DNA of 64,000 nt. It comes from Octopus vulgaris (lineage: Eukaryota). The notes beneath the pieces were generated by a model, which worked only from the letters and a program-made list of their open reading frames with translations, searched no databases and had not been told where the DNA came from. The stretch's first letter is position 1; each line of letters begins with the position of its first letter. Both the position numbers and the translations under genes were made by a program. Below are positions 5,482-51,920 of the stretch, piece by piece. The stretch covers positions 68,696,001 through 68,760,000 of the forward strand of contig OX597814.1 in the NCBI GenBank assembly GCA_951406725.2, in the 5' to 3' direction.

Positions 5482-5530
5482 AATAAATATAAGAGAGTGG
5501 TCACTATATTGATCACTCTCTTATATTTAT

Positions 5531-5531
<1 letters not shown>
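5482..5531. repeat. Hairpin with 18-bp perfect stem plus wobble extension
   Basis: AATAAATATAAGAGAGTG-GTCACTATATTGAT-CACTCTCTTATATTTATT. Confidence 0.85.
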
Positions 5532-5579
<48 letters not shown>

Positions 5580-5589
5580 CATACATACA

Positions 5590-5660
<71 letters not shown>

Positions 5661-5663
<3 letters not shown>

Positions 5664-8600
5664 AATCAAGGAACGGCCATAATAGGCCATTCACCCACTA
5701 GAAATAACAGCCAAAGCTTCAACCGCAAAATAACATTAATTCCGCAAACCAGGAGAAAATTAAAAAAAACATTTACCCTGTAATTTCTTATACGATGCAC
5801 CGTTTCATCTATTGTTTAATGGTAAACTAACCTGATTAAATTAAATCAAGCCAATCTTCCATAGGCCCTTAGATTCGTCAGTAAGAAATAGCCAGATCGG
5901 AACAGATATTTTCACGAGGCACTTCTGTCCCTGCCTCGGCAATATCTGACCTAAAATTTTCAAATCATCGCACTCGCGCCAAATTTATCGGCAGCAAATA
6001 AATATAAGCCGCCGATTCCATTACGGAATTAACCAGAAAATTCATAATTAATCAATATAGGGTGGCAAAAAATTTTGTAGAATTTTTTTGCCACCAGCGG
6101 CCTAGTGGGAAAAAATTAAATAGTCATAGACCATTTATAAGTTCAACATCACAATCAAGGAACGGCCATAATAGGCCATTCACCCACTAGAAATAACAGC
6201 CAAAGCTTCAACCGCAAAATAACATTAATTCCGCAAACCAGGAGAAAATTAAAAAAACATTTACCCTGTAATTTCTTATACGATGCACCGTTTCATCTAT
6301 TGTTTAATGGTAAACTAACCTGATTAAATTAAATCAAGCCAATCTTCCATAGGCCCTTAGATTCGTCAGTAAGAAATAGCCAGATCGGAACAGATATTTT
6401 CACGAGGCACTTCTGTCCCTGCCTCGGCAATATCTGACCTAAACTTTTCAAATCATCGCACTCGCGCCAAATTTATCGGCAGCAAATAAATATAAGCCGC
6501 CGATTCCATTACGGAATTAACCAGAAAATTCATAATTAATCAATATAGGGTGGCAAAAAATTTTGTAGAATTTTTTTGCCACCAGCGGCCTAGTGGGAAA
6601 AAATTAAATAGTCATAGACCATTTATAAGTTCAACATCACAATCAAGGAACGGCCATAATAGGCCATTCACCCACTAGAAATAACAGCCAAAGCTTCAAC
6701 CGCAAAATAACATTAATTCCGCAAACCAGGAGAAAATTAAAAAAACATTTACCCTGTAATTTCTTATACGATGCACCGTTTCATCTATTGTTTAATGGTA
6801 AACTAACCTGATTAAATTAAATCAAGCCAATCTTCCATAGGCCCTTAGATTCGTCAGTAAGAAATAGCCAGATCGGAACAGATATTTTCACGAGGCACTT
6901 CTGTCCCTGCCTCGGCAATATCTGACCTAAAATTTTCAAATCATCGCACTCGCGCCAAATTTATCGGCAGCAAATAAATATAAGCCGCCGATTCCATTAC
7001 GGAATTAACCAGAAAATTCATAATTAATCAATATAGGGTGGCAAAAAATTTTGTAGAATTTTTTTGCCACCAGCGGCCTAGTGGGAAAAAATTAAATAGT
7101 CATAGACCATTTATAAGTTCAACATCACAATCAAGGAACGGCCATAATAGGCCATTCACCCACTAGAAATAACAGCCAAAGCTTCAACCGCAAAATAACA
7201 TTAATTCCGCAAACCAGGAGAAAATTAAAAAAACATTTACCCTGTAATTTCTTATACGATGCACCGTTTCATCTATTGTTTAATGGTAAACTAACCTGAT
7301 TAAATTAAATCAAGCCAATCTTCCATAGGCCCTTAGATTCGTCAGTAAGAAATAGCCAGATCGGAACAGATATTTTCACGAGGCACTTCTGTCCCTGCCT
7401 CGGCAATATCTGACCTAAAATTTTCAAATCATCGCACTCGCGCCAAATTTATCGGCAGCAAATAAATATAAGCCGCCGATTCCATTACGGAATTAACCAG
7501 AAAATTCATAATTAATCAATATAGGGTGGCAAAAAATTTTGTAGAATTTTTTTGCCACCAGCGGCCTAGTGGGAAAAAATTAAATAGTCATAGACCATTT
7601 ATAAGTTCAACATCACAATCAAGGAACGGCCATAATAGGCCATTCACCCACTAGAAATAACAGCCAAAGCTTCAACCGCAAAATAACATTAATTCCGCAA
7701 ACCAGGAGAAAATTAAAAAAACATTTACCCTGTAATTTCTTATACGATGCACCGTTTCATCTATTGTTTAATGGTAAACTAACCTGATTAAATTAAATCA
7801 AGCCAATCTTCCATAGGCCCTTAGATTCGTCAGTAAGAAATAGCCAGATCGGAACAGATATTTTCACGAGGCACTTCTGTCCCTGCCTCGGCAATATCTG
7901 ACCTAAACTTTTCAAATCATCGCACTCGCGCCAAATTTATCGGCAGCAAATAAATATAAGCCGCCGATTCCATTACGGAATTAACCAGAAAATTCATAAT
8001 TAATCAATATAGGGTGGCAAAAAATTTTGTAGAATTTTTTTGCCACCAGCGGCCTAGTGGGAAAAAATTAAATAGTCATAGACCATTTATAAGTTCAACA
8101 TCACAATCAAGGAACGGCCATAATAGGCCATTCACCCACTAGAAATAACAGCCAAAGCTTCAACCGCAAAATAACATTAATTCCGCAAACCAGGAGAAAA
8201 TTAAAAAAACATTTACCCTGTAATTTCTTATACGATGCACCGTTTCATCTATTGTTTAATGGTAAACTAACCTGATTAAATTAAATCAAGCCAATCTTCC
8301 ATAGGCCCTTAGATTCGTCAGTAAGAAATAGCCAGATCGGAACAGATATTTTCACGAGGCACTTCTGTCCCTGCCTCGGCAATATCTGACCTAAAATTTT
8401 CAAATCATCGCACTCGCGCCAAATTTATCGGCAGCAAATAAATATAAGCCGCCGATTCCATTACGGAATTAACCAGAAAATTCATAATTAATCAATATAG
8501 GGTGGCAAAAAATTTTGTAGAATTTTTTTGCCACCAGCGGCCTAGTGGGAAAAAATTAAATAGTCATAGACCATTTATAAGTTCAACATCACAATCAAGG

Positions 8601-9181
8601 AACGGCCATAATAGGCCATTCACCCACTAGAAATAACAGCCAAAGCTTCAACCGCAAAATAACATTAATTCCGCAAACCAGGAGAAAATTAAAAAAACAT
8701 TTACCCTGTAATTTCTTATACGATGCACCGTTTCATCTATTGTTTAATGGTAAACTAACCTGATTAAATTAAATCAAGCCAATCTTCCATAGGCCCTTAG
8801 ATTCGTCAGTAAGAAATAGCCAGATCGGAACAGATATTTTCACGAGGCACTTCTGTCCCTGCCTCGGCAATATCTGACCTAAAATTTTCAAATCATCGCA
8901 CTCGCGCCAAATTTATCGGCAGCAAATAAATATAAGCCGCCGATTCCATTACGGAATTAACCAGAAAATTCATAATTAATCAATATAGGGTGGCAAAAAA
9001 TTTTGTAGAATTTTTTTGCCACCAGCGGCCTAGTGGGAAAAAATTAAATAGTCATAGACCATTTATAAGTTCAACATCACAATCAAGGAACGGCCATAAT
9101 AGGCCATTCACCCACTAGAAATAACAGCCAAAGCTTCAACCGCAAAATAACATTAATTCCGCAAACCAGGAGAAAATTAAA
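5661..9181 (-). mobile_element. Tandem array of 7 full plus 1 partial 488-bp hammerhead-bearing units (retrozyme-like / PLE pLTR array)
   Basis: Unit starts (CACAATCAAGG) at 5661, 6150, 6638, 7126, 7614, 8102, 8590 and 9078. Units are nearly identical, non-coding and flanked by (TA)n on both sides. Each full unit has one complete hammerhead. Confidence 0.9.
5783..5889 (-). ncRNA. Type I hammerhead ribozyme (unit 1; identical copies at 6271-6377, 6759-6865, 7247-7353, 7735-7841, 8223-8329, 8711-8817)
   Basis: Minus RNA: stem I AUUUCUUA, core CUGACGA, stem II AUCUA...UAGAU with nested helices, GAAA, stem III ACGGUGCAUCGU, triplet GUA, stem I' UAAGAAAU. All conserved core nucleotides are present. 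Predicted cleavage is between 5791 and 5790. Confidence 0.9.
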
Positions 9182-9386
9182 ATATATATATATATATATA
9201 TTTCGTTTTGGGATTTGGTTTGCAAGATTCTTTATGTGAGTTCGCTTGTTGAAGCATATTCTGTTGTGTCTGGGGAGAGTCATTCTCTTTTAGTGCCTTA
9301 TAATTTAACACACTCACCGGTAAAATTTCCATTTATTTCTTTTTTTATTTTTCTAAAAATGTTCGTTACGTCTTGCAATCTTTTCA

Positions 9387-10776: not shown

Positions 10777-12067
10777 CGAGGGGCGTTCAATAAGTAATGC
10801 CCCTGACCCACTTCCTATAGCAGTAGAGCAACGAAACTTGGCACAGTTATTAGTCTTTTTCTACATAGGAACCACCCAGAGTTATGCATTTCTCCCATTG
10901 TTTGATGCAGCTCTGGAGACCGTTTTTGTAGAAAACCCCAGCTTGGTCCTCCAACCTCAACGTGACTTCAGAAATCAAGGCTGCATCATCTGGGAAACGC
11001 TTTCCTTTCAAAAACAACTTCTTGACTGGGAAGAGGTGAAAATCAGAGGGTGCAAGGTCAGGAAAGTAGGGGGATGGGGGAGGAGTTCATAGTCATACGC
11101 CTGTGCTTCTGATCTGGCGACAAGCGAGTTGTGGACCGGAGCGTTTTCCTGCAGGAGGAGGATGTCTTTGCTGATCTTGCCCCGCCTCTTGATTTTGATA
11201 ACTTCTCTTAATTTCCTCAAAAGTGAAGCATAATAGGCTCCTGCAATTGTGGTACCCTTTGCCAGGAAATCTGTCATCACTACTCCGTCCTGGTCCCAGA
11301 AGACTGTGAGCATGACTTTGCCAGCGGAGGGCTGCACCCTTGCCTTCTTTGGAGGGGGTGAGTCACGGTGCTTCCACTGCATTGACTGGGCTTTGGTCTC
11401 TGGATCATCGTGATGGACCCAGGTTTCATCCTGTGTAATCAGTCTTTTGAAAAATTTTGATTCATCTTCTTGGCACATCTCCAAATTCACCCTCGAGCAC
11501 TCGACGCGTTCTTGCTTCTGGAAAGGCGTGAGCAACCTGGGAATACATCTGGCAGACACCTTTTGCATATGCAAATGGTCATGAATGATAGTTTCCACAG
11601 ACCCGGTACTAATCTTGACCTCATGGGCTATTTGGCGAATAATTATGCGTCGATCTTCCAAAATGGCAGCTTCAACTTGACGGACAGATGCCTCATCAAT
11701 GGCAGAAGGGGCGACCAGATCTGGGAGATGTTTCTACAGAGTTCCGACCATGTTTGAATTCACGATGCCAGCGTTTTACAAGGTCATATGATGGGGCATC
11801 ATCACCATAAGTTACTTTCATTTCATCAAAAGTCTCCCGTGGTGTGCGTCCTTTCAAATACAAAAACCGGATCACTGCTCGACACTCAACAGGCTCCATT
11901 TCACACTTGACTCGGTTCAAACACCTGTAAATCAGAAACCACAATTTGTTCAGAGCTGTAATTTGCCACTTACTCTATAGAGATAGAAATGATTGCACAT
12001 GCAAAATTTCAGCTAGATCCAACAAACTGCAAGTGGGTCAGAGGCATTACTTATTGAACGTCCCTCG
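10777..12067 (-). mobile_element. Full-length mariner (DD34D) element with frameshifted transposase
   Basis: TIRs CGAGGGGCGTTCAATAAGTAATGCCCCTGACCCACTT / AAGTGGGTCAGAGGCATTACTTATTGAACGTCCCTCG. TA dinucleotide on both sides; length 1291 bp. Confidence 0.93.
10850..11899 (-). pseudogene. Mariner transposase pseudogene
   Basis: MEPVECRAVIRF...RSGRP, then CIPRLL, TQDETW and HPP(fs)SPDLAPSDF motifs. Frameshifts near 11700 and 11070. Confidence 0.9.
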
Positions 12068-12904: not shown

Positions 12905-14600
12905 TTTACATAAAGTTAAATATATAACATAGAGTGGTCATAGTTTTGCATCCATAAAGTGCTTAGCTTTATAGACGACTTGTTAGACTCCAATAGCCGC
13001 GGGCATATAACCTCACTTCAAACTGGAGGTAGAAAACTGTTATGATCAGCTAATCTGTAAGTAAAAGAATAATATGCAATAGCTGACCATCAAAAGAATA
13101 ATATGCAATAGCTGACCAATAGCTGACCATCAATAGCTGACCATATCGCCCTTACACCTGTTCGGTAAGCAAATCTTATGGGCTTAAAGGGCGAACGAGG
13201 TATCTCCGCCCTTAGGTTGGTTCCTGTCCTCAAGTAATCTTTACTGACCTAATCAACGAACGGAGAATTCCACACCTGCAGGAGGTGGCATTTGAAATGG
13301 AGGCAGGGGTTAGGACCTCGTATCTTAAGTTTAAGAGAGACCTGAATCCAACAAGTCTTTAAGAATCCTTGCCCGCTCTGCTATGCAAAGCTTGCATCGT
13401 CCGCTCCCGTTGGTATTGGACCCCGGCTTCTCTACAATCCTCCATTTAATTTCGTATGGAGTTTTTTCATCTTTAAGGCATCACACGTAGCTGGCCAAAG
13501 ATGTGATGTAACGTCTTTCCAGAACCCTTAACGAAGATCTGTGGTTGTACAGGTACCCTTTAAAGGCAACTACGGCCAACCTGATGTATCTCTGAATTTG
13601 AGTGCTGGTTGTGTTCTTAACTCTGGTTTATCTTCCGTTGGTTCTGGGCCTGATGTTGTTGCTGCCGCTATTTTTACTGGAGCTGTCATCGTTTATTACA
13701 GGGCATGGGTCGAGCTGTTGCCGTTTCAGTAGTCATCCCTGGCTGTAGCGTTTTGATGCTGCTGTTATTTCCGATAGTGCTGTGGCTATTGTCGCTGTTA
13801 ATTCTGAGCGTAGGAGTGGTAGCTCCGCTGGTGCTGCAGGTGCTGGTACGGCCATCATCTCCGGCCATAGCGCTGGTGCTGGTGCTGCGGTCGTTGTTGT
13901 CGGTGCTGGTGTTTCTGCCGTTTAAAGCTGTTGCTGCCGTCTCCGCTGTTGCCATTGTTGTCGTCGATGTTGTTGGATGAGCTGCTGCTGCTATTACTCT
14001 GATTCTTAGGGCTGGATACTACCACATCCTCATATGCGACTCCCTCAGTCTCGCACTCCCCCATCCTACTGGCCAGTTATTTTACTCTCTGCATGAGCAA
14101 CTGGCCTCTGCTCTCGTTTTATGGATGTTTGCCAATATTCTTTTCATGTTGGGTTCCTGTTGAACAAACGTCTGTACCTGTGTGTCTGCGTGAAGTGCTT
14201 GTCTACCAACCTTAGTTTTAAAGTTGAATGAGAAGAGTGGGGCAAACCAAACGATGTTCCAGGAGCTCTTTCTTTCGCGGGTTCCGAGGTCCGGCATATA
14301 GGAAATGCGTCCTTAAAACCATTGGACGCCAGAGCCTCGTTGTAATAGGGGGCTGCAGTGTCGAAAATTTCTTGATTCGATAACATGTTCGAGATTCTCT
14401 TGCTGACAGCTTTCACTAGGTTCCTAAACACGATAGGCAAGTAGCAGTAGGCTGCATTGATGTAGGGCAACCTCTTGTTTGGTTTGTGGTAGAGATTGTA
14501 CGAACGGGAGCCAAAGTCTAGCGGCCACTGGAGTGTGATGAGTCGTCTATAAAGCTAAGTGCTTTATGGATGTGACTGGACTTATATTTAACTTCATGTA
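12905..14600 (-). mobile_element. Penelope-like element 3' relic (RT thumb + GIY-YIG) bracketed by inverted pLTR fragments
   Basis: YINAA..KRISNMLSNQEIFDTAAPYYNEAL, WNIVWFAPLFS, CSCR, GECETEGVAY, YIR..FKGYLYNH, CKLCIAERARILK. The segments at 12905-13002 and 14520-14600 are inverted copies of each other. Confidence 0.85.
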
Positions 14601-14621
14601 AATACATTACTGATCCGCTGA

Positions 14622-14673
<52 letters not shown>

Positions 14674-14704
14674 CATGTGTATCCTTGGACCTTTCCTTTT
14701 CTAT

Positions 14705-14739
14705 GTTTCTGACGAAGAGCTCCGCCCGAAACGTTAAAT
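14705..14739 (+). ncRNA. Minimal type I hammerhead in a short PLE-type repeat
   Basis: GUUU-CUGACGA-A-GAGC-UCC-GCCC-GAAA-CG-UU-AAAU, with palindromic AACGUU. A decayed sibling (CTGATGAAGAGCTCCCTCGAAT) lies at 27824 in homologous flanks. Confidence 0.7.
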
Positions 14740-14839
14740 CCTCCTCCTTTCTTTCCTTTCCTGAGCGTCCAATAATACTATACTTGTTCCACGTCCTCGC
14801 GTTGTTGTGTTTTCTCTTTGTTCATGTTTGGATTAACTA

Positions 14840-14903
<64 letters not shown>

Positions 14904-15402
14904 ATATGTAAGTATATGTATATTTTATCTGGGGTTTGTTTGTCCCACCTTATACTTGTGTGTCTTTGTGTCTGTGTGTGTGTATGTATACGTAAATGTA
15001 TGTATACATAAATAGCTTGTAACTATTATCGTGTCAGGTATCACTGACTCACCTACATGCAAGATTACGTAATTACTCGGTAATCAGCGGAAAAGTGAGC
15101 AGACTTTTAAGAATATGTACCACAATCTTCTCCGTATATCAAGCTTTAGCCAGTGTCGTGTTACAATAGCTGATATTTTGGGAGAAGACATGCTTGTTAG
15201 TGCATTCTTAGGATCTTATAGGATCCTAGGCGTTCCTAGCTACGGATTTGATAGCAGCTCGATGATGGTTTAAGCAACGATTAACGTAATGTAAATTTTC
15301 ATTTGGGTTATGACAGGGACGATAAAGGTCTCCATTAAAGTTTCATGAAACACCTAGGAAATTCACTAATCGATGGTTAATACTCACTGTAAAAGATATT
15401 TC

Positions 15403-16420: not shown

Positions 16421-18861
16421 AACGGCCTCGACCGGGGAGATGTGGCTCCTCTCTGCTATGATCTTGATGGTGCAATGATGCCTCTCTTCAACCCCAATGT
16501 CACTTGGCTGGTATGCTGCCCTGAAGAAACGGCTAACATGCCACTTGTCGAGCATTTCCCCCAGCACCTCAATTAGCTCATCCACAGGGCCTCATTCTAG
16601 GAATATCTCATTTAGTATTCTTGTGATTTCCTCCGCTGTCCCTGTCTTCATCTCCCTCCATATGGCCAACCGCCCCGGTCCGCATTCGACAATCTAGAGG
16701 TATGAGCTCTGCTGGTAGTATGTCACGTCCACTACCAATCGTTTCCAGTTGTGTTCCACTGGAATGCTTCCCGCCTCATGTAGACTTGGAGCGAGTCAAT
16801 GGACTGGCACCTGTCGCAGCTTCCAACTACTCTTTGCACACTCTGCCTGGTCACGTCAGAGTCAACTTTCCTGGCTAGGAACAGGATCCCGTTCCTATAA
16901 GGATCCCTATACCTTACTAGCTGATAACTTCACAGTCTCTTAGCCACATGCAGCTGCAGGTATGTTGACTTCAAATCGACGATTGTGAAGGACCCTGTCA
17001 TCTGCCTCCACTCTCTCAAGGTTTCGCTGCAAATGTCCGTAGCTTTACCGCCCATATGGCACAATACGTGGTTGTTCAGCTCTCGGAAATCTAATGCTGG
17101 TCTGACTTTATGCCTCGTCGGCTGCACCACTGCCATCAGCGGTAGCACTCCACTCTCTACTTCCTCCTTCCAAGGGATCAGAATACCTTCTTTGATCCAC
17201 CGTTCCTCCTCTCCCTCGAACTCGCTTCTGGCATCTCCTTTCAGAGTATGCTGATAGCAGCCTACAACTTTTTTCAGTGTCGGAGGATCTCCCTTCCAGA
17301 GCCATTCCACTGTCCACTGCCGGCCATTGAACACATCCCGAAAGTCTTTATCTGTGATGGTGTTTGCAGCAAATTTTTCTTCACAGCTCTCACCACTCTC
17401 CTGTCGCGAACTCACAGCGCATAGCGGCCTCGCATCATCGAACGCTACACCGGCTTCATCGATTGTGACACCTCCCAACCGGACAATGGCGTCCATCCCC
17501 ATCACCACATTGACTCCGTCCACCACAGGGTCGATCACGATCGCACACAACCTCAGTCTTGATCCTTGTGCCACCATCTCCACGTCGCTAGTTCCTCTGC
17601 AGCCAACTTCCGTAACGTCAACAGCCCTTACACGACTCACTCCGCTCTATTCTTCCAGCACCTCTAGAGTCATTAGGCTTGTTGAGCAGCCCGTGTCCAC
17701 GATGGCTCGTGACATCTTTCCCTTCACCATGACATCTAATACTGGCAACGCCTCTATTCTTTCGACGGGACGACTACCGGCGAAGTAGTCTCCCTTACAC
17801 CGTTTCCTGAAACGCATTCGCTAGCGATGTGACCTATTTGTCTGCATCGATAGCAAATTACTCCAGGCCTGGGTTCCTTGCAGTCTCTCACCATGTGCGA
17901 ACCCTGACACCGAAAACACTGCCCTTTGAAGAGTCGCCACGTTCCTTGTTCGACCCCTCTCCACCGCTCTTTGTTTGAACTCCTTCGCGTTGTTGGAGAC
18001 TCTGCTAAATGTGTCGTCCTACAACACGAGACGATGGCTTGATTACTAATAATGAAAGTAATACTATTATATCTCCCATCGACATGGAGTGAGTATTCGG
18101 CAGCTTTTGCAGTTCGACTGACACGTGGTCAGGAAATCCTGTCACAAAGGCTAATTGAACTGTTTGTTCCAACGACTCATCCCTGTATCACACGAGGCTA
18201 GGCAATCTCCTGATTTCGTTGGCAAACACATCGATCTGTTAACCCGTCCACTTCACTTTCCCCAGTCGACCATATGCCATAAATTACCTTTTGTAAAAGT
18301 CTCCATCAGCCGGACTTCAATTATTTCTGCGCTTAACTGGTCCTTCTCTTCCATTTCCAGGTATAGTGCCAACGCCGATCCATCGAGGTACAATGGTATG
18401 AAACTCGATAGGTCATCTATACCTTGGAGTCTTGCCACGAACTTAATTTTCTGCAGCCAAGCGGTGACACCTCCCTCGCCGCAAAATGGCCTTACCGTTT
18501 CATTCGAAACACTGACCACACTCATCATTTTCTTTTTTTGAGCTGAAAAAGCTTGTGATGTGAAGGGGGAATAAAGACGGAAGTAAAGAGAAAATTGTGG
18601 TAGTCTTACCTATCGGTCCGGAAAACGGTCACTCTCAACGTCTAAGTGCTATGTCTCGATCTGCAAGATTCGCTCAACATCCACGTGCGCTGTCCGTGGC
18701 TGTACCGTCTAACACACCTGCCCTCATGCCCTGTCGCCATCAACTGACTGCTTGCGCCTCGCTGACTTCGCATGCCCACCGCGGTCCTTCCGGTGGGACC
18801 CCTAGGCTCCACTTCCGACAGAACATGCCCACTCCCTCACTTCCGGTCTTTCCCTACAACA
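16421..18861 (-). mobile_element. Ty3/gypsy LTR retrotransposon relic (putative 5' LTR, gag, protease, partial RT, partial integrase)
   Basis: Zinc knuckles CFRCQGSHMVRDC and CYRCRQIGHIASEC (17813-17918). Protease AIVDTGCS. RT VRPALDFRELN..DLKSTYLQL. Integrase-like residues at 16500-16720. Putative LTR TGTTGTAGGG..CACATCACA at about 18554-18861. Large internal deletion. Confidence 0.85.
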
Positions 18862-21602: not shown

Positions 21603-22075
21603 TCAGGTCATCCCATAAGTTCTGTCCGATTTTACCAAATTCAAATTTGAATGAGATTTAATAGTATTTTAGAATGTCTAATGAAATTGAAAATTATTTT
21701 TAGACATATGTGTACCTTTAAACTCATTAAATATTATTTTACAGAATAATAGAATTAAAATTTCTTTCATTAAAACCCTTTCTGACATGGACATATCCAA
21801 AGAGTATTTGAGGTTCTTAATACTTTATGAGTACGAAAAAGGAAACTCTGCAGCCGAAGCGACTCGAAATATACAATAAGCTTATGAGAAATAATGCTTG
21901 AATGAAAGAATTTGCAGAAGATGGTTTGCAAAATTCAGAAGTGCAGATTTCAGCCTTGAAGATGAAGACCGTCCAGTTGAATTAGATGATAAGCTCCTTG
22001 AGGCATTACTTAAAGAAAATCCTGCATTATCAGTTGAAGAATTTGCAATAAAGTTTAGTTCAAACCATTCAACAG
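21603..22075 (+). mobile_element. Mariner 5' fragment (TIR + HTH region)
   Basis: TIR-like TCAGGTCATCCCATAAG (compare 56851). MDISKEYLRFLILYEY..RRWFAKFRSADFSLEDEDRP with in-frame stops. Confidence 0.8.
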
Positions 22076-22715
22076 AATGGTTTGCACTAACAGAAATAGA
22101 TAATATCAAGCACAACTCGGCTGTAGGCCCCGATAAGTTCCCGGCCACTGTCCTGAAGATGTGTCAATATAAAATTCCACTCCTTCTAGCTCAGCTCTGG
22201 ACAAACTTAATAGACGCTACATTCTTGATCCTTTTTCCCCAGTCTGTCGTTCAAGTCTTCAAAAATGGAGACAAATCTCCTACAGTGAACTACCGTCCAG
22301 TTTCACTCACTTCTCATATCATCAAAGTATTTGAGAGGGTGGTGAGATCGCGAATAACTCACTTCCTCGAAGACAACAATCTGCCGAACCCCAAACAGCA
22401 TGAATTCCGTGATGGCAGGGACTGCCTGTCACACCTTCTGCACCATTTTGATGAGATCTTAAAAGCGTTAGAAGAAGGCTCCAACACTGATACCTTGATT
22501 TCAGCAAGGCATTTGACAGATTGGACCACAAAATCCTGCTGAAGAGACTGTCCAGCATTAGAGTCCGTGGAAAGCTGCTGCAGTGGATAATGTGTTTCCT
22601 GACGAACAGAAACCAACACGTTCTGTTTGAGGGAATACGATCCAACGTAGCCAAAGTCAGTAGTGGTGTCTCACAAGGCACTGTGTTGAGCCAACTCATT
22701 ATTTACATCAACAAC
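22076..22715 (+). mobile_element. LINE (CR1/L2/Jockey-like) RT fragment
   Basis: SAVGPDKFP, NYRPVSLTSHIIKVFE, QHEFR, DFSKAFD (frameshifted), SGVSQGTVL. Confidence 0.85.
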
Positions 22716-22733
22716 ACACACACACACACACAG

Positions 22734-22801
<68 letters not shown>

Positions 22802-22806
<5 letters not shown>

Positions 22807-23087
22807 TCCAGACCGAAGATACAAGGAAAACAAGGACGGACCATTCGGAGTTTTCTATCCTCAGTCGAGTTCCAGATTATCTTTGCAATTTCGGCTGGTT
22901 ATACTGGAGATTGCTCCAATCTGGCCAGCCCCAAGGAAAACATCTTGACAGTTAGGTGAAACAAAAAAAGGGAAAAACAAAATATCCAGACCAACTGAAA
23001 TTGCAAAGATAATCTGGAACTCGACTGAGGATAGAAAACTCCGAATGATCCGTCCTTGTTTTCCTTGTATCGTCTGTCTGGATATTT
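22802..23087. repeat. Inverted repeat with about 97-bp arms
   Basis: 22802-22898 is a near reverse complement of 22991-23087. Confidence 0.88.
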
Positions 23088-25182: not shown

Positions 25183-25529
25183 TCAATACATCTATTCATT
25201 GCTTTGAATGCACACCGATTAATGGACGATGTCAGGTCTAATAGTTCCTGAGAAAAAAGATTATTTGTAAGGGAGGTAAGTAGTTCTGGATTTGGTGCAA
25301 TTAGGTTAGATATAGAATTGTAATGCGAATGGTGTAAGGGATGTATGGGGCTTAGTGGTATTAATTGAAAGGTTAGTAGTGTTCTGTATTATGTTATGTG
25401 TTCATATTTGGTTGGGGAAGATATTTATTGATGAAAGTTGCCTCTTTATTCATTCTTTGTTGCATTGAGATGTTCTGTGAACATTAATAGAAGAGGAAAA
25501 TTAATAACTTCTAGCAATAGCTTTCTTTA

Positions 25530-26640
25530 TTTCGGATGTTCGGTGGATCTTAAAAGACGTCTTAACAATCCTTTTTCCTCTTTTAGGCTCAAACATAAGG
25601 CAGGTTGCACAACACTATCTAACAAAATTTGGGAACTAAAAACAAATAATATAGAATTCAACCTAAAATGGGATATAGTTAGAAGGGCGCAACCTTATAG
25701 AAATAGTAGGGATGGTTGTCAAATTTGTTCTATGGAAACTTATGAAATTTTAAAACATCAGAGTAATACAAATCTGTTGAATAATCGTCTGGAGTTGGGA
25801 TATCTTGTATGCATTGCACAACCCGAACGTTTAAATACTTTAAATAATAATTTTGTGAGTATTCCTATATTTTTCAAATTTTAATTCTTTATAATCAAAT
25901 AAGAAGACATATACTAGCTTTCAATTTAACATTCCTCGATGACTAAAAAAACTTCACTGCAAACTTGAAATTGGAATTTTTTTCTAAATTTAATCTAGCT
26001 TTAAAATTAATAAAGCTTTCCCCCAGTTAAAAAATACTATGCCTACTCATAATAATAAGTGATAGGTTTTATTTTTCTTCCCCTTTTTTTCTCTAAATTA
26101 CACTCTCTGTGAATGGGATTAGGACCATTTGACATTGACCTAGTTTCTCTCACCAAATAGCAGTAATTGGCATTTATTAGTGGCAATTGCTGTCTTCAAC
26201 ATGAATTCCTTTTATAGAGTTTCTGAAACCTCCTTTACCCCATTTCTACAATTAAAAAAATCATTATTGCTTCTAACCTTACGGCAGTTAGGAACAGCCA
26301 TATCTTAGTCAGTCAGTGGAAGGACTTCACTACCTCATATGTTCTTAAAATTTAAATCCACATCTTTGTCTGTATATCTACCTTCTCTATAATGTTGCCA
26401 CTTGATTTGAACATTTTTGTATTAATGGAAAAGCTCTATAATTGGCTGATGAGTACTCAGTATCTTAAATCTGTTGTAATACTTACAACATTTAATAAAA
26501 TGAGGTAGTACGAAACAATCGTACGAAATTACTGGAGTCATACTTGTTGCTTATTTTGATTATAATCACCCCGCGGATTTTTATGGATAACAGCATACAA
26601 AATTCTGGTGCATCTAAATTAAGTACCATATTCATTTGAA
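25530..26640 (+). mobile_element. Penelope-like GIY-YIG 3' relic plus pLTR with decayed hammerhead
   Basis: YFGCSVDLKRRLNNPFSSFR..TTLSNKIWELK..LKWDIV..CQICSMETYEIL..LLNNRLE. Hammerhead relic AATTGG-CTGATGA-GTAC...GTAC-GAAAC at about 26440-26530. Confidence 0.8.
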
Positions 26641-33631: not shown

Positions 33632-34439
33632 TATATATATACAACTTACTCTCTATTCGACCTTGCATCCAACCTAATACAATTATGAAACAAGCTGAAC
33701 CAGTAACAATCTTATTTAGATTTTTAATAAATAATTTTCCACAACTAACACTCGAAAATTTGAAAAGGGGAGAATAGCTAATCTGAAGGAATTTTCAGGC
33801 TGTTGCTGAAAAGTGAAAAAACGCTTATGTAATAAGAAGTGCGCATAGAATTAATATTAAAATAAATATACATTTATCCGATTACTCAATTACAAACATA
33901 ATGTCAGGACTGAGGGAAAGAGTTATGTGCACACAGCTGTGTTCAAATTTTAGTTCTAGATATTCCAAACTATGTTACAAACTATAAATAATGACATTAT
34001 TTTCCAATGAATGCCTCTCAGGTTTTGAATTTTATGGGCAGCAATCATGGAACGTGCTATGGGCAAACACTTTATGAATATGATCTACATATAGATAGTT
34101 ATCTACTTGTTTAACAATCACGTATTTAATCCAAATATTTCTTTGTAAATCCTTTATATAATATTCATAGCTGCTCAATATTCAAAATAGAGCTCTCCTT
34201 ATGGTAGTCAATCGAAAGTGACCCTGTTCTGTATCACGGGCACAATGGCTGTGGTCTTGAAATATTGGTATATACAAGATATATGATGCTGCATGCAAGC
34301 TTTGAAACTTAATGATAGAAGAATTTTCTAGGAATATTAAATCTTATACAGTGTTACTTCTGAACTCTACTCAACAATTCTCGTTTATAGCATGGTTGTT
34401 TGGTTGTTGGATTTTTTTATAATCAAAATGTCCAGAAAT

Positions 34440-35870
34440 GGGAGCTATTCATTGCTACATGCCATTGTAAATTGAATATTGGAGTTTATATTGTTCAGTG
34501 TAGATTTGAAGTCCAGAAGTTTATCATAGGTTTCATTCCAGGGAATAAAACAATCGTCTAGGTACCTTTTCCAGTTGTCTCTTATATACTGGTGGAATTG
34601 GGGTCCAAATTTTTGGAGCGAAAATTCATATAGGGTAGATTCAAAGAAACTCATTATTAGATTCGCAAGGACAGGCTCTGCTTTTGTTCCCGTCGCAATA
34701 CCGCATTTTTAGCGGTAGTATGTTTCATCGAATAGTAAGTAATCGTTTTGTAGGATGAACTTCAGAGGTTCAATGGCCGCACAGATCAGACTTTCGTCAA
34801 GCACACTAAGGAAAACAAAACACCACATCTCACTTTAAATCACTCCAACAGATATCACCCCACAACCCCAGAAACAAAGAAGCACACAACACAATTGTAC
34901 AAAACCTCCCCCTGCTCACTCAAGACCCGAAAAGGAACAACATTCTGAATACACATAAATTCCTATAATGCAAAAGATAACACAATTCATTTAAGAGACT
35001 CCTAACAAATGCCAAACAATACTCAACGCATATGATACCAACAGTTATAAAATGCGGACGACCTAATTGTGGTACATGCCCATACCTAACTGAAGGTTCG
35101 GAATTCACATTCCAGCAAGGAGAAAAAATTTCAATTAATATCCAACATCACTGTGCCTCTCAGAACTTAATTTATGTCCTAATCTGCTCAGGTTGTTACC
35201 ACAAATATGTAGACCAAACGAGCCTTACTTTGAAACTCAGAGTTACGTTGCATAAAGAACAGATTCGTTTTCCTCAATACAGGCAGTTAGCTCTGAGCAA
35301 ACATTGACAGGTGCGCAAAAAATAAAACACCGAATTTTCATATTTTTCCATTATATCAAAGCAAAGATTCAATGTCCTTACAAGAACGTCTAAACAAGGA
35401 AAACCTGTTCATACAAAAGTACAGACCACACCTTAATACACAAACTTGACCACCCTACATATTCCTATTTCAAAATCAAATTTATTTACCACTATTCAAT
35501 AATATTGAGGAGGTAGTTGTTCCCCTCGTCATCTATTGCCTCTCTTTATCCACTCTCTCCATTCATTCTTACTTTTCATGAAATCCAAAATGGTGTGATT
35601 CCTTTGTTTCAAAGAATGATTACTTTACGATGTCCCTTGAAAAGCTAGTTTAAATAGCGACAACTGGTTGGATATCACTACATTTTATGAGACTTTTACC
35701 ACCCATAAAATATGTATAGAGATATTTTTATAAAAAGATATTATAACCATGTGAAATGAAGGCATTTCTCTTCCCTTTTTTATATGTTTTACACATATTT
35801 TTACTTCATAACTTGGCCACGTCGTGTATACTGATTCTCCAGCATTTTTACTCCTTTATGTATGTATGTA
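34440..35870. mobile_element. Penelope-like relic with inverted RT segment (minus) joined to GIY-YIG segment (plus)
   Basis: Minus 34445-34760: GIATGTK..ANL, WKRYLDDCF, NIQFT. Plus 35030-35450: CGRPNCGTC, NLIYVLICSGCYHKYVDQT. Confidence 0.85.
35629..35676 (+). ncRNA. Hammerhead-like motif with variant or decayed core
   Basis: GAUGUCC-CUUGAAAA-GCUA(GUUUAAA)UAGC-GACAA-CUG-GUU-GGAUAUC, downstream of the PLE GIY-YIG. Confidence 0.45.
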
Positions 35871-38419: not shown

Positions 38420-40020
38420 ATGGACCTATTATTCATGTAAATGCTTCGTCATATATTGTGTTTACTGTTTTGCCATGTTTATCACTGGGAATGTAGAGGT
38501 TCTTTTAATCTCCAACTCTAGAACAGCCAACATACAGCTGACCATGTGAGAAGCAAGGCTGAATGAGTTAAGTCCCACCACCTTTAGAGATTGACCTTGT
38601 GCTTTGTTGATAGACATTGCAAAGCTAAGTTTGACATGAAACTGCAGTCTCTTGAACTGAAAGGGGAGATCATTTGAGATGAGAGGTATCCTTGGAATGA
38701 AGACATTCTCGCCCATCATGTTCCCATGATGGAGAAGAGGTTTCTCAGCTGCATAGGTGACTTGCACATTTGTGCCTCTGTCAGAGTGGCATCCCAGTGT
38801 GTATCATCTTCCAGAAGACCTCTGAGATAGCAAGCCTGATGATATGTTTGACACTGCGTTATCAACCATATGTAAGGCTGTAAATAATGTGGGTCCCTTG
38901 ACATGGTGTAATAGAAGCTTGAGATAGTAGCACTGTGAGTAGTTGGGATGGACTGCATAGACTCTGCTAAGTGTGTCTGATTTCTTGATTCCCGGATGGT
39001 GTGTGGGTGCTTCAAGTGCATTTTTTTCCATTTGTTTCGGTACCAGGTATAGAATTGTGGAACTTCATTGTATAACAGTCTTGTAGCAAATTCATCATCT
39101 TGACAGAGCTTGAAGAATGCTGTGAGTGTGGTATTTTTGTGAGCTTCCATTTTTAGTTGGACTGTGTCAGTCAGTGTGCTGTCCCTGAGATGGTGGACAA
39201 TGTCACGCTTGTCATGTTCTTACCCAACCAGAAGCACAGCTATTTCATTTGCTGTTGGCGCATTAAATCTCCCTCCATGTTGACCAGATGGTTTCTTGTC
39301 TGATCTGATAACTACCTTGTAATCCAGGGAGTCAGGTGGATTTTTTTCAAGTGCAGTCTTTAAGCTTCTGATCAGGCTGTTGTTGTCATGCAGTATCTTT
39401 TGCAGAGACACTACAATGTTCATCTTGATGCCGGAAATGTTCTTGCACCTCTCTTGTCCTTCTTGTTGAGAATCACCCATAAAATATATTTGAAGGAATT
39501 TTGGTGATTCATTTGATAGAGGTAGTAGAGAGCCAATCTGATGATAAATCTGACCTTGCGCATGGTAAGTTTGCATGAATCCTGGCTCACTTATATATTT
39601 TGTGGCTCCAAATGATGTCATCTGTAGAGCAGCATTGTACTGTCTAATTTTGTTTTGGAAGTGCTTGGAATCTTGGTCAGTTAATGACAACAGTTTCTTC
39701 AATGGCTCTGAATTTTAACCTTTCCACCTCTGCAGCACAGTGCAGGTGTCTCTCCAGACTACTTCCCGGCTCTACAATGTATGCACTCAGTTGTCATTGC
39801 ACCAATGGAAACTCTAGAGTCACCTGTATAATGAACTGCAGGATCATAATTGAATGCTGCTTCATAGAAGTTGTTTCTCTGAGCTGTTGCAACTGCTCTT
39901 CTGCAGCTCTTCTGTTCATCTCTTGGAGATGCTCTGACTTTTGTAGTGAACAGTCTGTTCGTTTCTTGGCATGCTTCCCTTTCTGCAGCTATCTCTCTTT
40001 CCCTGGACAGAAGCATTCTT
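38420..40020 (-). pseudogene. Helitron Rep/helicase relic with large internal deletions
   Basis: IRQYNAALQMTSFG..GQIYHQIGSLLP..FLQIYF; TTLTAFF..LLYNEVP..LLLHHVKGP; PIF1 C-terminus IPRIP..FKRLQF..FAMSINKAQGQSL..SHGQLYVGCSR. Confidence 0.9.
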
Positions 40021-42478: not shown

Positions 42479-43374
42479 ACTGCGTTTCCCTCCGGAAACA
42501 GTTCCGCAAACATAGGATGAATTTGATCAGATAAAATGCTTACATAGTCTTGACTATTAATTCTGCCATAAAGGGAAACCATTAGGCCGGCGGATTTCCA
42601 AGATATAGCCCCCTAGATCATCACAGATCCTTCTCCGTGTTTAACAGTTGGAATAAGGCAGTCTGAGTCAAATGCTTCTTTTGGCTGTCTCCACGCGTAT
42701 ACTCTGCCGGTGGTCGGAAATAAGGTAAAGGATGAATCATTCGAGAAAATAACATTCTTCCATTGCTCTAGGGACCAATTCTGTAGGTTTTTACTCCACT
42801 CTAAACGCTTTACAACATTTGTTTTGAAAGTAATGCTTTTCTGATTTCAGCCCTCCCGTGAAATCCGGCTTGTGCAGCTCCCAGCGAACAGTTTTTGTGG
42901 AAACTGGGTTCTCGGGATGGTCATGAAGCTCTGCAGTAATTTTGGGAGCTGTACTTTTGTGATCCTTTCTAACAATTCGGCCAACAGTCCCTATCTGAAA
43001 TTTTCGGTTTTCTTCTGGAGTTTTGTTTCGACGAGAATATTTTTCCTTCTTTCTCAAAGGCTGTAATTACTTTCGAGACAGTACGTCTTGATACACCAAA
43101 CGTTTTGGCTGTTTTTCGTTACGCTAGCGCCTGCCATACGAGCACCAACAATTTGACGTGTTTGAAACTCCGATAGATCTGTCATTTTAAAGAATTTAGT
43201 TACATTTTTCTGGTGATACCTGAAAAGAAACAGCAGTTTTAGCTAAACATATTAAGCAACACTAATAATAAATAAAAAAACATAAAAATAAACAAGTTTT
43301 TTGACGATTTCATAGATATTTCAAAATTATGATTCTGTGATGCTAGGTGTTTTCATTATTTTGTCCAACCACTG
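42478..43374 (-). mobile_element. Tc1-like element, 3'-truncated
   Basis: TIR CAGTGGTTGGACAAAATAATGAAA with TA. MTDLSEFQTRQIVGAR.., WKNVIFSNDSSF, VMI*GAISW. Confidence 0.85.
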
Positions 43375-43449
43375 TATATACATACATACATACATACATA
43401 CATACATACATACATACATACATACATACATACATACATACATACATAC

Positions 43450-45745
43450 ATTCTACCGACCATATCTTATCAATTTGTACCAGCAAGCTTTCATTGGGAA
43501 CAGTAGCATACCATACTGGTTAGCTCTGGCAGAGACAGACTTAATCCCTAAATGCAGAACCACCAACATGGCAACAAACTACCGGCCAATTGCATGTCAG
43601 AACTTAATGCATAAGATATATACAGCATGTTTAAACCTCTTCCTCCAAGACCATTGTGAGACCAATAACATTATCGCAGCAGAACAAGCAGCTGAGAAGA
43701 AGGGAGTCTGGAGATGTGCCGAGCAATTGCTAATCAACAAAACTGATGTCAGAGGTGAGAGAGCATAGGAAGACCCTAGTTTCAATGTGGCTAGATTACA
43801 AGAAAGACTTTGACTCTGTTCCCCACTCATTGATGCCAGAAGCCCTTCAACTTGCTAAAAATCCAGTGAGAATAGTCAAAGCCATAGCTGACCTGACCTC
43901 ATCGTGGACCACCATCTTGAAATTAAACACAAAAAATGACTGTATTATCACCGATAGAATACAATATCGCAAAGGCATATTCCAAGGAGACAGCCTCTCT
44001 GTGATGTTGTTTATATTTTATGTAAACCCCTTGTCATTCATGATAAGGAAGTCTGAAGGATATCTCACTGGTTCATAAGGAAACAGAAATACCAAAATTA
44101 CACACTGTTTCTTTATGGATGACTTTAAACTGTATGCAGTAAATATGCATGAGATGAAATAGAGCCATGACCTAGTTACAACACTCTCAAAGGATGTAGG
44201 GTTGGAGTTTGGACAGTGTAAATGTTATATGGTTGTAAAAAAGGGGGGAATTATAAACCAGACTATTAACAGCTCCATCAATGATTTGACTGTTTCCCCT
44301 GCATCTGACGAGGAATGTTACAGGCATCTAGCAGATGGATGAAAATATATCATACAATGGCACCTGTAACAAAACACGCGTCACTAAAGAATATTACAAC
44401 CGAATAAAGAAAATGTGGACCTCAGAACTCTCTGCATTCAATAAAACAGTGACCCACAGTGTGTTTGCAGTGCCAGTACTCATACCAACATTTGGGCTGC
44501 TTGATTGGACGCTTGATGAGATCCGAGTCATTGATGTGAAAACCCGAAAAATACTAACAAGCACGCATAATTGCCACATAAACAGTGACGTAGACTGCCT
44601 CTACCTAAAACGTAAACAAGGTGGCAGATGCTTAACATCGATCCAAAATGCCTTTCAATGTTGCATCATATCCCTTCGGCAACATCTTTTAACCACCAAG
44701 TGTCAAAGTGCATCTCTTGACCAAGTTCGCATATATGAGGCTGATAGCATCATAAGACTTGGAAGGCTGCTCCAAGAACAACACTCTTTGTCTGATAATC
44801 TAGAATGCATGCCCAAAGAAGTCGCATGACTCTACTGCAGCATAACATCAGATGAAAGGATGAGTCTGTATGAGCAGAAGGCTATGCATGACAATGTTAG
44901 TAGAAAGCTCCGTGATGATAGTAACATCGAACATCAAAGCATTTTATCATGGACGAATAGCTGGATTACTACCTCCCACTTTGAAGGGTATTCGTTTGCA
45001 ATCCAGGAAATATCAACCAAGTACCTGATGCACAACAGGGATAGAGATGCGGGAAAAGCCGTCAAATGTGACAACCGATGCAGACTTTGTGGAGTCCACA
45101 CTGAAGATATCACCCACATCATAAGCAGTTGTCCGAAAATGTCATCATGGTTTATCTCCCGATGGGACATGACGTTGTAGCTAGGACACTCTATAATGAA
45201 ATCTGTCGGAAGGATAATCCCAAGGAAAAAGGAATAAAAACGCACAATGTGGTAGAAGCCATAGCCACTCATAATAAAAAAGAATACTGATGGAATGTAC
45301 CAGTGAAGACCTCAATAAAATGTAAGCACAACAGATCTCATATAATGATTTGGGATAGAGAAGATAAACTGTGCACAGTTGTGGAAATTAGTTGCCCAGT
45401 GGATGTTAACATAAAGCTGAAGATCAGTGAAAAAGAGAACACCTATGCTAAACTATTGAGAAATAATCTGCAATGACTCTATCCAGATTACAAGTTCAGG
45501 TTTATAGCTGCAATTATTTGGGCCCTAAGTACCAATCTTGAGAAATTAGGCTTCTCAAAACCAGAAAGGTGAAAGCTAAATCGAAGACTACAGATCTGGA
45601 ATTGTACAAACCTGTAAAACTTTCCAGAAGTTTATCATTTAAATATATATGAGCATGTCTAGATACATAACTATATGCATGAGAATACATACATAAAACA
45701 TACAAATCTGCTCATGTGTACATACATACAAAAATACCCTGTTGT
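43450..45745 (+). mobile_element. 5'-truncated RLE-type non-LTR retrotransposon (R4/Dong-like)
   Basis: NYRPIAC, WLDYKKDFDSVPH, GIFQGDSLS, FMDDFKLY, CRLC..H..SSC (CCHC), HNRSHIMIWD..VEISCP (RLE). Directly follows a (TACA)n tract. Confidence 0.88.
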
Positions 45746-50617: not shown

Positions 50618-51474
50618 AAATTTCTTTACCTACATCGTGTCATGTCTTCGTTATGAAATGCAAAGAAGAGTTCCAGGGGGGGGGAGTAATCAGGGATTTC
50701 TTCCGGTATAAGGGAGATAATCGCTTTATATTTTTTTCTTTTTTCAATGAGATGAGTTTCTCTGTATAAGAATGTTAGGATGGTTAAGTTTAGGCTTATA
50801 TTTTTCAATGAAGAATGTTTTCTTTTTTAATCTAATTTGTGTTGGTGTTCCAATAGCCCATTGATAGAATGGAAAGATTAAAAATTGTGGTTGTAGTTGC
50901 TTAGCGCATTTCTCAATATGCTCACTAAAGGGTATCCTTCTGTATTCTGGGAATGCAATCTGTTGTCGATGCAGTGTGCATCTGCATCTGAGTGATAATC
51001 CCGTGGACCCTACGTAGTTTTGGTGGCAGCCCGAGCATCTTATGACATAAATTATGTTTTCAGAAGCACAAGTAAAATTAGATTTGATTTTGAATTTTTG
51101 TCCCTCTTTGAAAAAGAAATTCTGATCCTTCTAGAAGGTTTGAGCATGTTGCGCAGTTTGGTCTACCACATGTTTTTAACTTTTGCATCCGTAATTTCAG
51201 AAAACAATTTTGCCTTTGTGAGAATCTTTTTTAGTGATTTAGGTTGTTTGTAGCTTTTAATGATTTTATGTATGTTTAGAATTTCCTTTAATTTAGGGTC
51301 CTTATGAAGTATTGGTAAATTCTGGGTGATGATGGTGAAGGCTCCTTTGCTCCTGGGTTTGTATGTGGATACGTAAGGCAGTATTTTCGGGGAAGGTGTG
51401 TTGTTGTGTTTAACTTTCCTCAAAGTTTCTATGTCGATTTCTGTTGCACGTCTGATCCCATCCTATATGAGTTG

Positions 51475-51602
51475 AACTGTTTTTGAGTTCTTGTAGCCTG
51501 AACTGTTTTTGAGTTCTTGTAGCCTAAACTTTTTGAGTTCTTGTAGCCTAAAATTTTGAGTTCTTGTAGCCTGAACTGTTTTTGAGTTCTTTTAGCCTAA
51601 AA
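51475..51602. repeat. Minisatellite of about 25 bp, five copies, inside the PLE ORF
   Basis: (GAACTG)TTTTTGAGTTCTTGTAGCCT repeats. Confidence 0.9.
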
Positions 51603-51876
51603 TTCCTGGTATTTTGTTCTGACACTATTGTGCATATCCTTCTTGCAAGGTTGAAAGGGATGTTTGTTTTAGTGTGTCTTGGGTGGCATGAATAAAAAAG
51701 TAGGTATTGTTTGGCGTCTGTGATTTTGTAAAATATGTCTGTTTCTATTCTTAGGTTAATTTTTTTATACAGTATATCTAAGAATGGAAGCTCCTTTTGA
51801 TTGTACTCCATTGTGAACTGTATATTTGGGCTGACGCTGTTCAATAGGTTTTTGAATTTTAGGAGTTTATCTGTGT

Positions 51877-51920
<44 letters not shown>

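Follow-up and report, generated by a model that had tools for sequence, protein, structure and literature searches.

Fixed, paired ends in a young octopus retrozyme family suggest copying by a Penelope-like element

Non-LTR retrozymes of metazoans such as coral, mussel and axolotl (PMC7229834; bioRxiv 10.64898/2026.07.22.740005) are non-coding, low in GC and strongly self-paired, consist of tandem units with type I hammerheads, are dispersed and co-occur with Penelope-like elements (PLEs); cleavage and circles have been demonstrated there. Animal retrozymes are assumed to use Penelope-like reverse transcriptases (RTs) on the basis of this co-occurrence and of a similarity to pLTRs. According to a review, retrozyme repeats show no motif indicating a partner (PMC7761336), and the accessible parts of the metazoan retrozyme papers mention neither fixed ends nor a tail nor arms in inverted order. 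The second group of interest is that of the endonuclease-bearing PLEs, namely Penelope/Poseidon PAc, Neptune and Hydra, with internal RT starts downstream of the hammerhead, a tail, inversions, partial tandems and (TA)n targets (PMC11167929, PMC8557442, PMC3846280). In the accessible accounts, the PLE signature is an inverted 5'-truncated copy with a tail on one end, and the origin of the inverted arms and the one-sided tail is stated there as unresolved. For PAc, two internal RT starts, cutting and extension of both strands and a predicted dimer were reported; in vitro its start sites did not differ between the top and the bottom strand, and insertion did not depend on cleavage by the ribozyme (PMC11167929). 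The non-autonomous Chlamys elements (MRC1) are green-algal, and their accessible description reports no hammerhead and a 3' end similar to that of autonomous partners.

The locus described here lies in a stretch of 64,000 nucleotides of Octopus vulgaris DNA, referred to as the window. Within it, TRF detected a period of 488 with 7.2 copies and 99% matches at 5659-9182, and alignment to a unit multimer covered 3,524 bp at 99.9% identity, the whole insertion (5659..9182; ribozyme-bearing RNA on the minus strand) being 7.22 near-identical head-to-tail copies of a non-coding 488-nt retrozyme unit. A sequence-only reading had described such units between (TA)n tracts, on which both methods agree; it had placed the repeat at 5661..9181, boundaries that move to 5659 and 9182, and its terminal redundancy of about 104 bp is present but measures 106-107 bp. 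On the left the array is preceded by a (TA)n/(TACA)n tract (5522..5658) and on the right it is followed by (TA)n (9183..9201), where the RNA-5' end at 9182 corresponds to monomer position 25. A target-site duplication, which exceeds 4 bp when present in retrozymes, is masked by these flanks. Unit 1 is 489 bp long due to a single extra A within an A-run, and a single substitution is found in each of units 2 and 5 (6444, 7908). The unit has a GC content of 0.37, the longest Met-started open reading frame in its trimer is 26 aa, and a frame with RT and GIY-YIG endonuclease, as expected of an autonomous PLE, is absent from it. Folding of the monomer gave z = -5.33, with none of 100 shuffles equally stable. 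The earlier impression that the unit is unusually long does not hold, since retrozyme consensus lengths reach from 51 to 972 bp in a recent preprint (bioRxiv 10.64898/2026.07.22.740005), although 488 bp lies above the approximately 170-400 nt given in PMC7229834 and above another described range of 150-450 bp.

Each full unit contains on the minus strand a complete type I hammerhead, open at stem I, with the core CUGAnGA / GAAA / UH and stems I-III. This had been anticipated, and at the sequence level it was found in all seven units; the description of the ribozymes as intact stands for the sequence, cleavage itself being a prediction. In copy 1 (5783..5889), identified by core and fold, an 8-bp stem I (5889-5882 with 5790-5783) is followed by CUGACGA (5881-5875) and a stem II of 5 bp (5874-5870/5811-5807) plus a long extension. 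Next come GAAA (5806-5803), the near-palindromic stem III (5803-5792) and GUA, with predicted cleavage at 5791/5790 that would recur every 488 nt. Motif matches place copy 2 at 6271..6377 (predicted cleavage 6279/6278) and copies 3 to 7 at 6759..6865, 7247..7353, 7735..7841, 8223..8329 and 8711..8817. The seven sites delimit six predicted cleavage-to-cleavage monomers of 488 nt, for example 6279..6766. An A-U pair replaces the usual G10.1-C11.1 in 11/11 sequences, a pair that is highly conserved in hammerheads (PMC4209133); this exchange, the long stem II extension and a size beyond 170-400 nt distinguish the octopus unit, which is known from DNA sequence, from the tested metazoan retrozymes. 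The active ribozyme fold is less stable than the local minimum by 2.1 kcal/mol, the circular minimum-energy fold lacks stem I, and an internal loop is predicted in both the extended stem I and stem II. For orientation, 8/9 predicted retrozyme dimers of Xenopus did not cleave in vitro. A search of the unit against Rfam gave no match at gathering score and 14 weak matches at E<=10 with no hammerhead among them, for which the long stem II insertion may be responsible; the weak miRNA and sRNA matches were dismissed as low-complexity or hairpin chance matches.

Across 11 hand-picked, related sequences, the hammerhead stems of different subfamilies (see below) have 4 pairs altered on both sides with 99.5% of cells paired, and the covariation, assessed by five measures, exceeds all 500 shuffles; on one of these measures, the number of doubly altered pairs, 69 of the shuffles did as well. 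The ribozyme core shows 2 substitutions in 1,552 cells, compared with 1.05% overall, and the free core position N7 is altered in 31/136. Because of the compensatory changes and the core conservation, the ribozyme appears to be under selection.

The exact ribozyme motif occurs 1,802 times in the genome, and the anatomy was scored at the 40 best-matching of 1,168 candidate loci. Subfamilies of 485-492 nt are each dispersed as arrays, and of the second one 9 of 40 sites were inspected in sequence. The array therefore belongs to a young, dispersed non-LTR retrozyme family of a known kind: its units are tandem with a complete type I hammerhead each, non-coding, below 50% GC and strongly self-paired, and they are multi-copy and dispersed in a genome that also contains PLE families. 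Seen purely as a ribozyme or a retrozyme, it is unremarkable. Since the units are 99.9% identical, the assembly may have miscounted the 7.2 copies, which is a point in favor of an assembly artefact or an ordinary satellite. We nevertheless regard this explanation as extremely improbable, as distinct exact junctions to (TA)n number 412 (site-A type, as defined below) and 670 genome-wide with no hits for the backwards controls, and as contigs from 4/4 sequencing runs (three of them putative RNA runs; X15 may be the assembly's own sample) contain head-to-tail unit joins and have loose (TA)n ends at 6148 and 6044; the ribozyme covariation also argues against it.

The ends of the insertions follow a strict rule. 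At the 40 best-matching loci, 69/70 outer RNA-3' ends fall at monomer position 125-136 or 230-239, which defines two fixed internal sites, A (131 from the cleavage site) and B (235), approximately 104 nt apart, and only the RNA-5' ends are scattered. The sequence-only reading had assumed arbitrary start and end points and, for arrays elsewhere in the genome, permuted endpoints; dispersal is confirmed, but permutation fails at the RNA-3' end. In the window, the RNA-3' end at 5659 on the minus strand coincides exactly with site A and abuts (TA)n, and it probably marks the RT start. The tail of about 104 nt from site A (6148) to site B (6044) occupies 6044..6147 and is repeated every 488 bp. As the RNA-5' ends are scattered, we take the match in size between this tail and the 106-107-bp redundancy as coincidence. 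Hairpins are predicted just 5' of site A (5671..5692) and of site B (6061..6095) on the RNA and may serve as positioning signals. By eye, a distant relative in L115 has a hairpin-like stretch of different sequence at the same place near site A. The repeat (TA)5 lies within 16 nt of 67/70 ends, and two of the three exceptions have a TA run with interruptions. No outer end at these loci falls at the cleavage site; the arms exceed the distance to it, and 64/69 of them cross at least one cleavage site and 35 at least two. An apparent excess of RNA-5' ends immediately past the cleavage site (9 ends, 4.6 expected, P 0.043) concerned one of seven bins, was not significant when corrected and was discarded.

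Head-to-head inversions are present at 30/40 of these loci, whereas the window array is one-directional. All 29 classifiable inversions (L036 is unclassifiable) pair site A with site B (binomial P 1.9e-9). An unselected test on contigs C1-C2 yielded the same result, with 19/19 facing pairs of the A+B type and no A+A or B+B among 158 exact junctions, and further loci with both ends visible, from the second subfamily and older copies, showed A+B in 7/7, which gives 55/55 classifiable inversions in total. The arms share haplotypes (9/282 mismatches at 13 polymorphic sites, 0.30 in shuffled pairs, 0/5,000), and 7/29 loci have private variants in both arms, which indicates a common source, not one molecule. 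It has been proposed for rotifer Penelopes that inverted arms arise by fold-back self-priming on an antisense template (PMC3846280) instead of two target primings. The 5' ends lie within 20 nt of each other in 6/29 junctions, compared with 2.4 expected, as fold-back would favor, but 23/29 junctions join unrelated positions, 20/29 have overlaps of 1-4 nt, and fold-back offers no reason for A at one end and B at the other, so that we consider it unlikely here. L1 twin priming can also yield inversions. LINE priming, though, uses the RNA 3' end, with the second primer at variable internal places and no arm overlap. A microsatellite-targeting LINE with such twin priming, an option that retrozyme papers leave, is thus very unlikely, given that no outer end sits at the cleavage site, that both starts are fixed and internal, that the arms overlap, and that coding PLEs obey the same rule.

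Indeed, coding PLEs of this genome have the one-end tail in 23/23 cases, with 12/12 in the Neptune-like family N1, which has an 811-aa open frame, 10/10 in N2 (one by TA distance) and 1/1 in a Hydra-like family. Their tails in the sampled families are about 42, 48 and 67 nt long, as compared with 104 nt in the retrozyme. The two fixed internal ends, the one-sided tail, the inverted 5'-truncated copies and the (TA)n target, which Neptune, Hydra and Naiad also use, are thus common to the octopus family and PLEs, and as in endonuclease-bearing PLEs the two presumed RT starts lie downstream of the hammerhead. The octopus unit differs from the latter by the lack of an ORF, by a tail of about 104 instead of 30-40 nt and by a full-size rather than minimal ribozyme. 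The idea that retrozymes are mobilised by PLE RTs, as put forward earlier, agrees with this anatomical end signature. In sequence, the unit resembles none of the sampled PLE families: no significant similarity was found to N1 (L070-L115), to N2, N3 and older Neptune-like copies (L116-L163) or to Hydra-like H1 and older copies (L164-L193), a profile search of L070-L193 gave no partner, and 18/18 further 801-bp 3' stretches of older Hydra-like copies and the rest of the window gave no match. Several of these 801-bp stretches probably stop short of the true 3' end, and the sampling was directed at Neptune-like and Hydra-like families rather than at Penelope/Poseidon, Nematis or Naiad. The only significant matches were separate retrozyme copies in L114, L124 and L143 and the distant relative in L115. 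A same-strand match in L183 with a blastn E of 0.023 weakened to E 0.58 and was dismissed, and Pfam named none of five PLE-like fragments.

As an alternative, it has been proposed in the above preprint that such units are solo pLTR remnants of 5'-truncated coding PLE insertions, amplified as satellites by unequal crossing over (bioRxiv 10.64898/2026.07.22.740005). The PLE-type ends would fit this, the partner search covered only some PLE families, and 5/19 multi-unit arms, the window included, have variants in some units only, a mosaic that suggests local turnover. However, the aligned arms are unit sequence from end to end at all 40 loci, in 10/29 inversions each of the two arms spans a full unit or more, 14/19 multi-unit arms have no partly shared variant, the subfamilies are each dispersed as arrays, and the head-to-tail wrap-around requires a unit already closed on itself; we therefore think that this origin is improbable. 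A trimeric template, considered for the period-3 variant of units 2 and 5, was rejected, as this variant is absent from all other loci of the 40; it may be a local event or assembly noise. In L034, one arm mixes haplotypes, and together with the 5/19 arms this implies that a single monomeric circle is insufficient without later turnover or assembly noise.

The fixed, paired ends and the identical rule in coding PLEs point to two-ended priming of the Penelope type, and we consider it probable that this young, non-autonomous family of non-LTR retrozymes owes its mobility to a Penelope-like (GIY-YIG plus RT) element acting in trans. Points that speak against it are the negative partner search in the sampled families, the longer tail, the behaviour of PAc in vitro (equal start sites on the two strands, insertion independent of cleavage), the mosaic arms, and the unusual A-U pair and unfavorable folds of the ribozyme. 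In this process, the minus strand would be transcribed and would self-cleave, perhaps with the help of dimers that pair through their palindromic stem III. Both strands of (TA)n would be cut by a PLE protein, probably an asymmetric dimer, and reverse transcription would be primed by one DNA end at internal site A and by the other at site B, each cDNA reading through at least one ribozyme site. As the cDNAs cross ribozyme sites, the template would be a ligated circle, for which we see an even chance, an uncut multimer, which is quite possible, or, improbably, monomers linked by jumps between templates. The arrays may have arisen by rolling-circle copying, and an uncut multimer fits as well. The two cDNAs would meet and be joined by microhomology, and if only one end were productive, as presumably site A in the window, a one-directional array would result. 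More tentatively, and with somewhat less than even confidence, an obligately asymmetric two-ended mechanism could be general to endonuclease-bearing PLEs, in which an RT dimer would grip a single RNA at both of its fixed internal sites and allot one of them to each end of a double-strand cut. On circular retrozyme RNA both enzymes would run round the circle, and the module of about 220 nt that surrounds A and B would act as a portable signal defined by its structure, which needs no sequence similarity to the partner for its recognition and allows circular RNA to be written into (TA)n DNA.

The octopus family links two questions, namely the source of the enzyme that copies retrozymes and the formation of Penelope arms and tails. 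A protein-free passenger of 488 nt has Penelope-type ends that strictly pair A with B, and intact candidate enzymes are present in the same genome. With a small template, exactly predicted starts, a target sequence and candidate proteins in hand, a single in vitro experiment could decide on two-ended priming and between circle and multimer. The fixed, paired ends suggest that the retrozyme borrows the Penelope copying enzyme and is copied simultaneously into the two sides of a DNA break.

Tandem repeat analysis of the window places the array at 5659-9182, with a period of 488 and 7.2 copies that align at 99.9% identity to a multimer of the unit, and (TA)n tracts bound it on either side. The tandem 488-bp array proposed in the sequence-only reading is thus real, with its limits corrected from 5661 and 9181; terminal redundancy is present as well, but measures 106-107 bp instead of about 104 bp. 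The seven minus-strand type I hammerheads are also confirmed, with predicted cleavage at 5791/5790 and then every 488 nt. Unit 1 has one additional base, and units 2 and 5 have one substitution. The longest ORF of the unit is 26 aa, which makes it non-coding, and the monomer RNA folds far more stably than shuffled sequence (z -5.33). Locus-private variants common to non-adjacent units occur in window units 2 and 5 and in the long arrays of loci L037, L050, L060 and L066, and in L037 five variants are common to two units five apart; possible causes are a multimeric template, subsequent turnover and noise in the assembly. Elsewhere, the window holds broken mobile-element remnants (11008-11733, 61225-61969, 16930-18609, 21895-22955, 38462-39714 and 43316-45180), including a mariner-like transposase (PF01359), a Tc1-like HTH (PF25787) and LINE-type RT pieces (weak PF00078). 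By their motifs, two remnants are presumably an LTR-retrotransposon gag/protease/RT and a Helitron-like helicase.

Dispersed arrays exist genome-wide: in the 2.8-Gb genome the unit query returned 1,168 candidates, of which the best 40 were scored (208 matches on many contigs, identity up to 100%). For a second subfamily, about 90% identical, there were 1,095 candidates, 40 of them scored. A tight motif of the ribozyme 3' half was found 1,802 times and its backwards control 0 times. There are also older copies (77% identity, L124), and the unit, whole or partial, is present in 20 sequencing runs under four organism codes.

By the features that can be tested from DNA, in which the octopus family resembles metazoan non-LTR retrozymes (PMC7229834), the element is one of these; retrozyme units of 51-972 bp have been described (2026 preprint). 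Rfam did not recognise the hammerhead in the unit. Across all units of 40 loci, the units not being independent of one another, 0.13% of the cells at the 11 core positions are substituted (2 of 1,552), compared with 1.05% overall, and the free position N7 differs in 31 of 136. In 11 hand-picked variants of two subfamilies, 99.5% of cells are paired, both-sided changes occur at 4 pairs of stems I and II, covariation is higher than in any of the 500 shuffles or any slid control, and the count of pairs changed on both sides is reached by 69 of 500 shuffles. The ribozyme looks to be under selection. Counting against activity are the replacement of the usual G10.1-C11.1 pair by A-U, a predicted active fold 2.1 kcal/mol above the local minimum, and the absence of stem I from the circular minimum-energy fold. 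Stem III is near-palindromic in the unit, and in the second subfamily its palindrome is perfect, which fits published accounts of animal hammerheads acting as dimers (PMC4209133).

The insertion ends are not arbitrary. The 40 mapped loci (the window and 39 others) are the best matches of 1,168 and hence over-represent young loci that contain one or more full units; 30 are head-to-head inversions and 10 are one-directional. Start and end points had been thought arbitrary, which applies to the scattered RNA-5' ends alone. When position 1 of the monomer is the first base past cleavage, 69 of 70 outer RNA-3' ends fall within site A (125-136) or site B (230-239), and the remaining one belongs to a short piece in L036; (TA)n adjoins 67 of the 70. 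A is paired with B in 29/29 classifiable inversions (P 1.9e-9). The one-directional loci end at B in eight cases and at A in two, among them the window, whose insertion we infer to be a one-sided product begun at site A. Exact junction patterns number 412 for type A and 670 for type B genome-wide, with controls at 0. In an unselected test, 158 exact junctions were listed on two genome contigs, C1 and C2, and where two junctions faced each other at no more than 12 kb, the pair was A+B in 19/19 cases and never A+A or B+B; one extra A+A pair was same-strand, and the remaining 118 ends lacked an exact partner, as expected of patterns restricted to the most frequent junction types. Both ends can be seen at seven more loci (L202, L206/207, L210, L211, L212/223, L114 and L124, the two split loci being taken as continuous from the match table), and these are 7/7 A+B, which brings the total to 55/55 classifiable inversions. 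In sequencing contigs, (TA)n loose ends were seen at site A (6148) in 14 contigs of run X15, which may be the assembly's own sample, and in one of X6, and at site B (6044) in one contig of X5. A distant relative with a period of 478, matched weakly by the profile (E 0.007), lies at L115:~290-890; it stops next to (TA)n at a position resembling site A and has, at the same place, a hairpin of different sequence.

Inversion junctions show a 1-4 nt overlap in 20/29 cases and are near-palindromic in 6/29, against 2.4 expected. The two arms of an inversion come from the same source, as shown by their agreement within a locus: 282 comparisons over 13 polymorphic sites give 9 mismatches, and shuffling raises the rate to 0.30 (0/5,000). 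Private variants are present in both arms at 7/29 loci.

PLE insertions characteristically form partial tandems, carry a 5'-truncated copy in inverted orientation and have a tail of 30-40 bp, as a rule on just one end (bioRxiv 2021.04.23.441226; PMC3846280), and the end anatomy of the retrozyme family, as read from DNA, is this Penelope signature. The young coding families of the same genome were called by motifs, not by a tree (Neptune-like by the Cys linker, Hydra-like by RWK, CxCX5C and size; PMC8557442), and comprise the Neptune-like N1 (811-aa open frame), N2 (753 aa) and N3 and the Hydra-like H1 (717 aa, ~2.59-kb tandems). All four target (TA)n, and (TA)n tracts act as landing pads used in common by PLEs and retrozymes. 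The tail is on exactly one end in 12/12 N1 inversions with both ends visible (16 loci; ~42 nt), in 10/10 of N2 (18 loci, one by distance to TA; ~48 nt) and in 1/1 of H1 (~67 nt). The unit has no sequence in common with the subset of PLE families sampled. N1 (L100-L115 of genome G000, e.g. L105:3438-5873) has intact frames and a motif that by eye looks like a minimal hammerhead, its C3/G8 positions being occupied by U and A; N2 (L146-L163, e.g. L146:2209-4470) is 59% identical to N1 and has a long 3' region; H1 (L184, L188-L190) forms head-to-tail tandems and inversions, and its hammerhead-like motif has, like the retrozyme, an extended stem II, and C at core position 4. Retrozyme copies lie inside a PLE (TA)n flank or adjoin another retrozyme at L114:5420-5916, the left flank of L046 and L223:2304-2598. 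The window itself contains degenerate Hydra-like (13346-15399, 25504-25797) and Neptune-like fragments (34400-35446, 50756-51880), the last with 80-91% identity to the young 811-aa family.

Of the 69 arms, 64 cross one or more predicted cleavage sites and 35 cross two or more, which a single pass over a cleaved linear monomer could not produce; 5' ends just after a cleavage site number 9 versus 4.6 expected, which is not significant after correction. The lizard element PAc starts reverse transcription at two internal sites, and the distance between them equals the length of its tail; it cuts and extends both strands of the target, its protein is predicted to form a dimer, and its insertion does not require ribozyme cleavage (PMC11167929). 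For the retrozyme, a PLE protein may cut both strands within (TA)n, and an asymmetric complex would use A as the start of one cDNA and B as that of its counterpart, both sites lying directly 3' of a predicted hairpin; the cDNAs would extend along either a circle or a multimer left uncut, to be joined by microhomology. A circular template predicts the absence of partly shared variants, as found in 14/19 multi-unit arms; 5/19 are mosaic, and haplotypes are mixed within one arm of L034.

PLEs have been named as likely mobilisers of retrozymes, with no partner-indicating motif noted (PMC7229834; PMC7761336), and in Xenopus co-occurrence with PLEs and pLTR similarity are described (2026 preprint). 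Within the openly accessible literature searched, we found neither fixed ends, tails or inverted arms on retrozymes nor a cephalopod retrozyme, and the main text of an octopus repeat annotation (PMC13282606) contains 'ribozyme' or 'retrozyme' 0 times. The one-sided tail of PLEs is already known qualitatively; its strict form and its occurrence on a protein-free ribozyme element appear to be new, and the value of the family is mechanistic rather than that of a ribozyme find.
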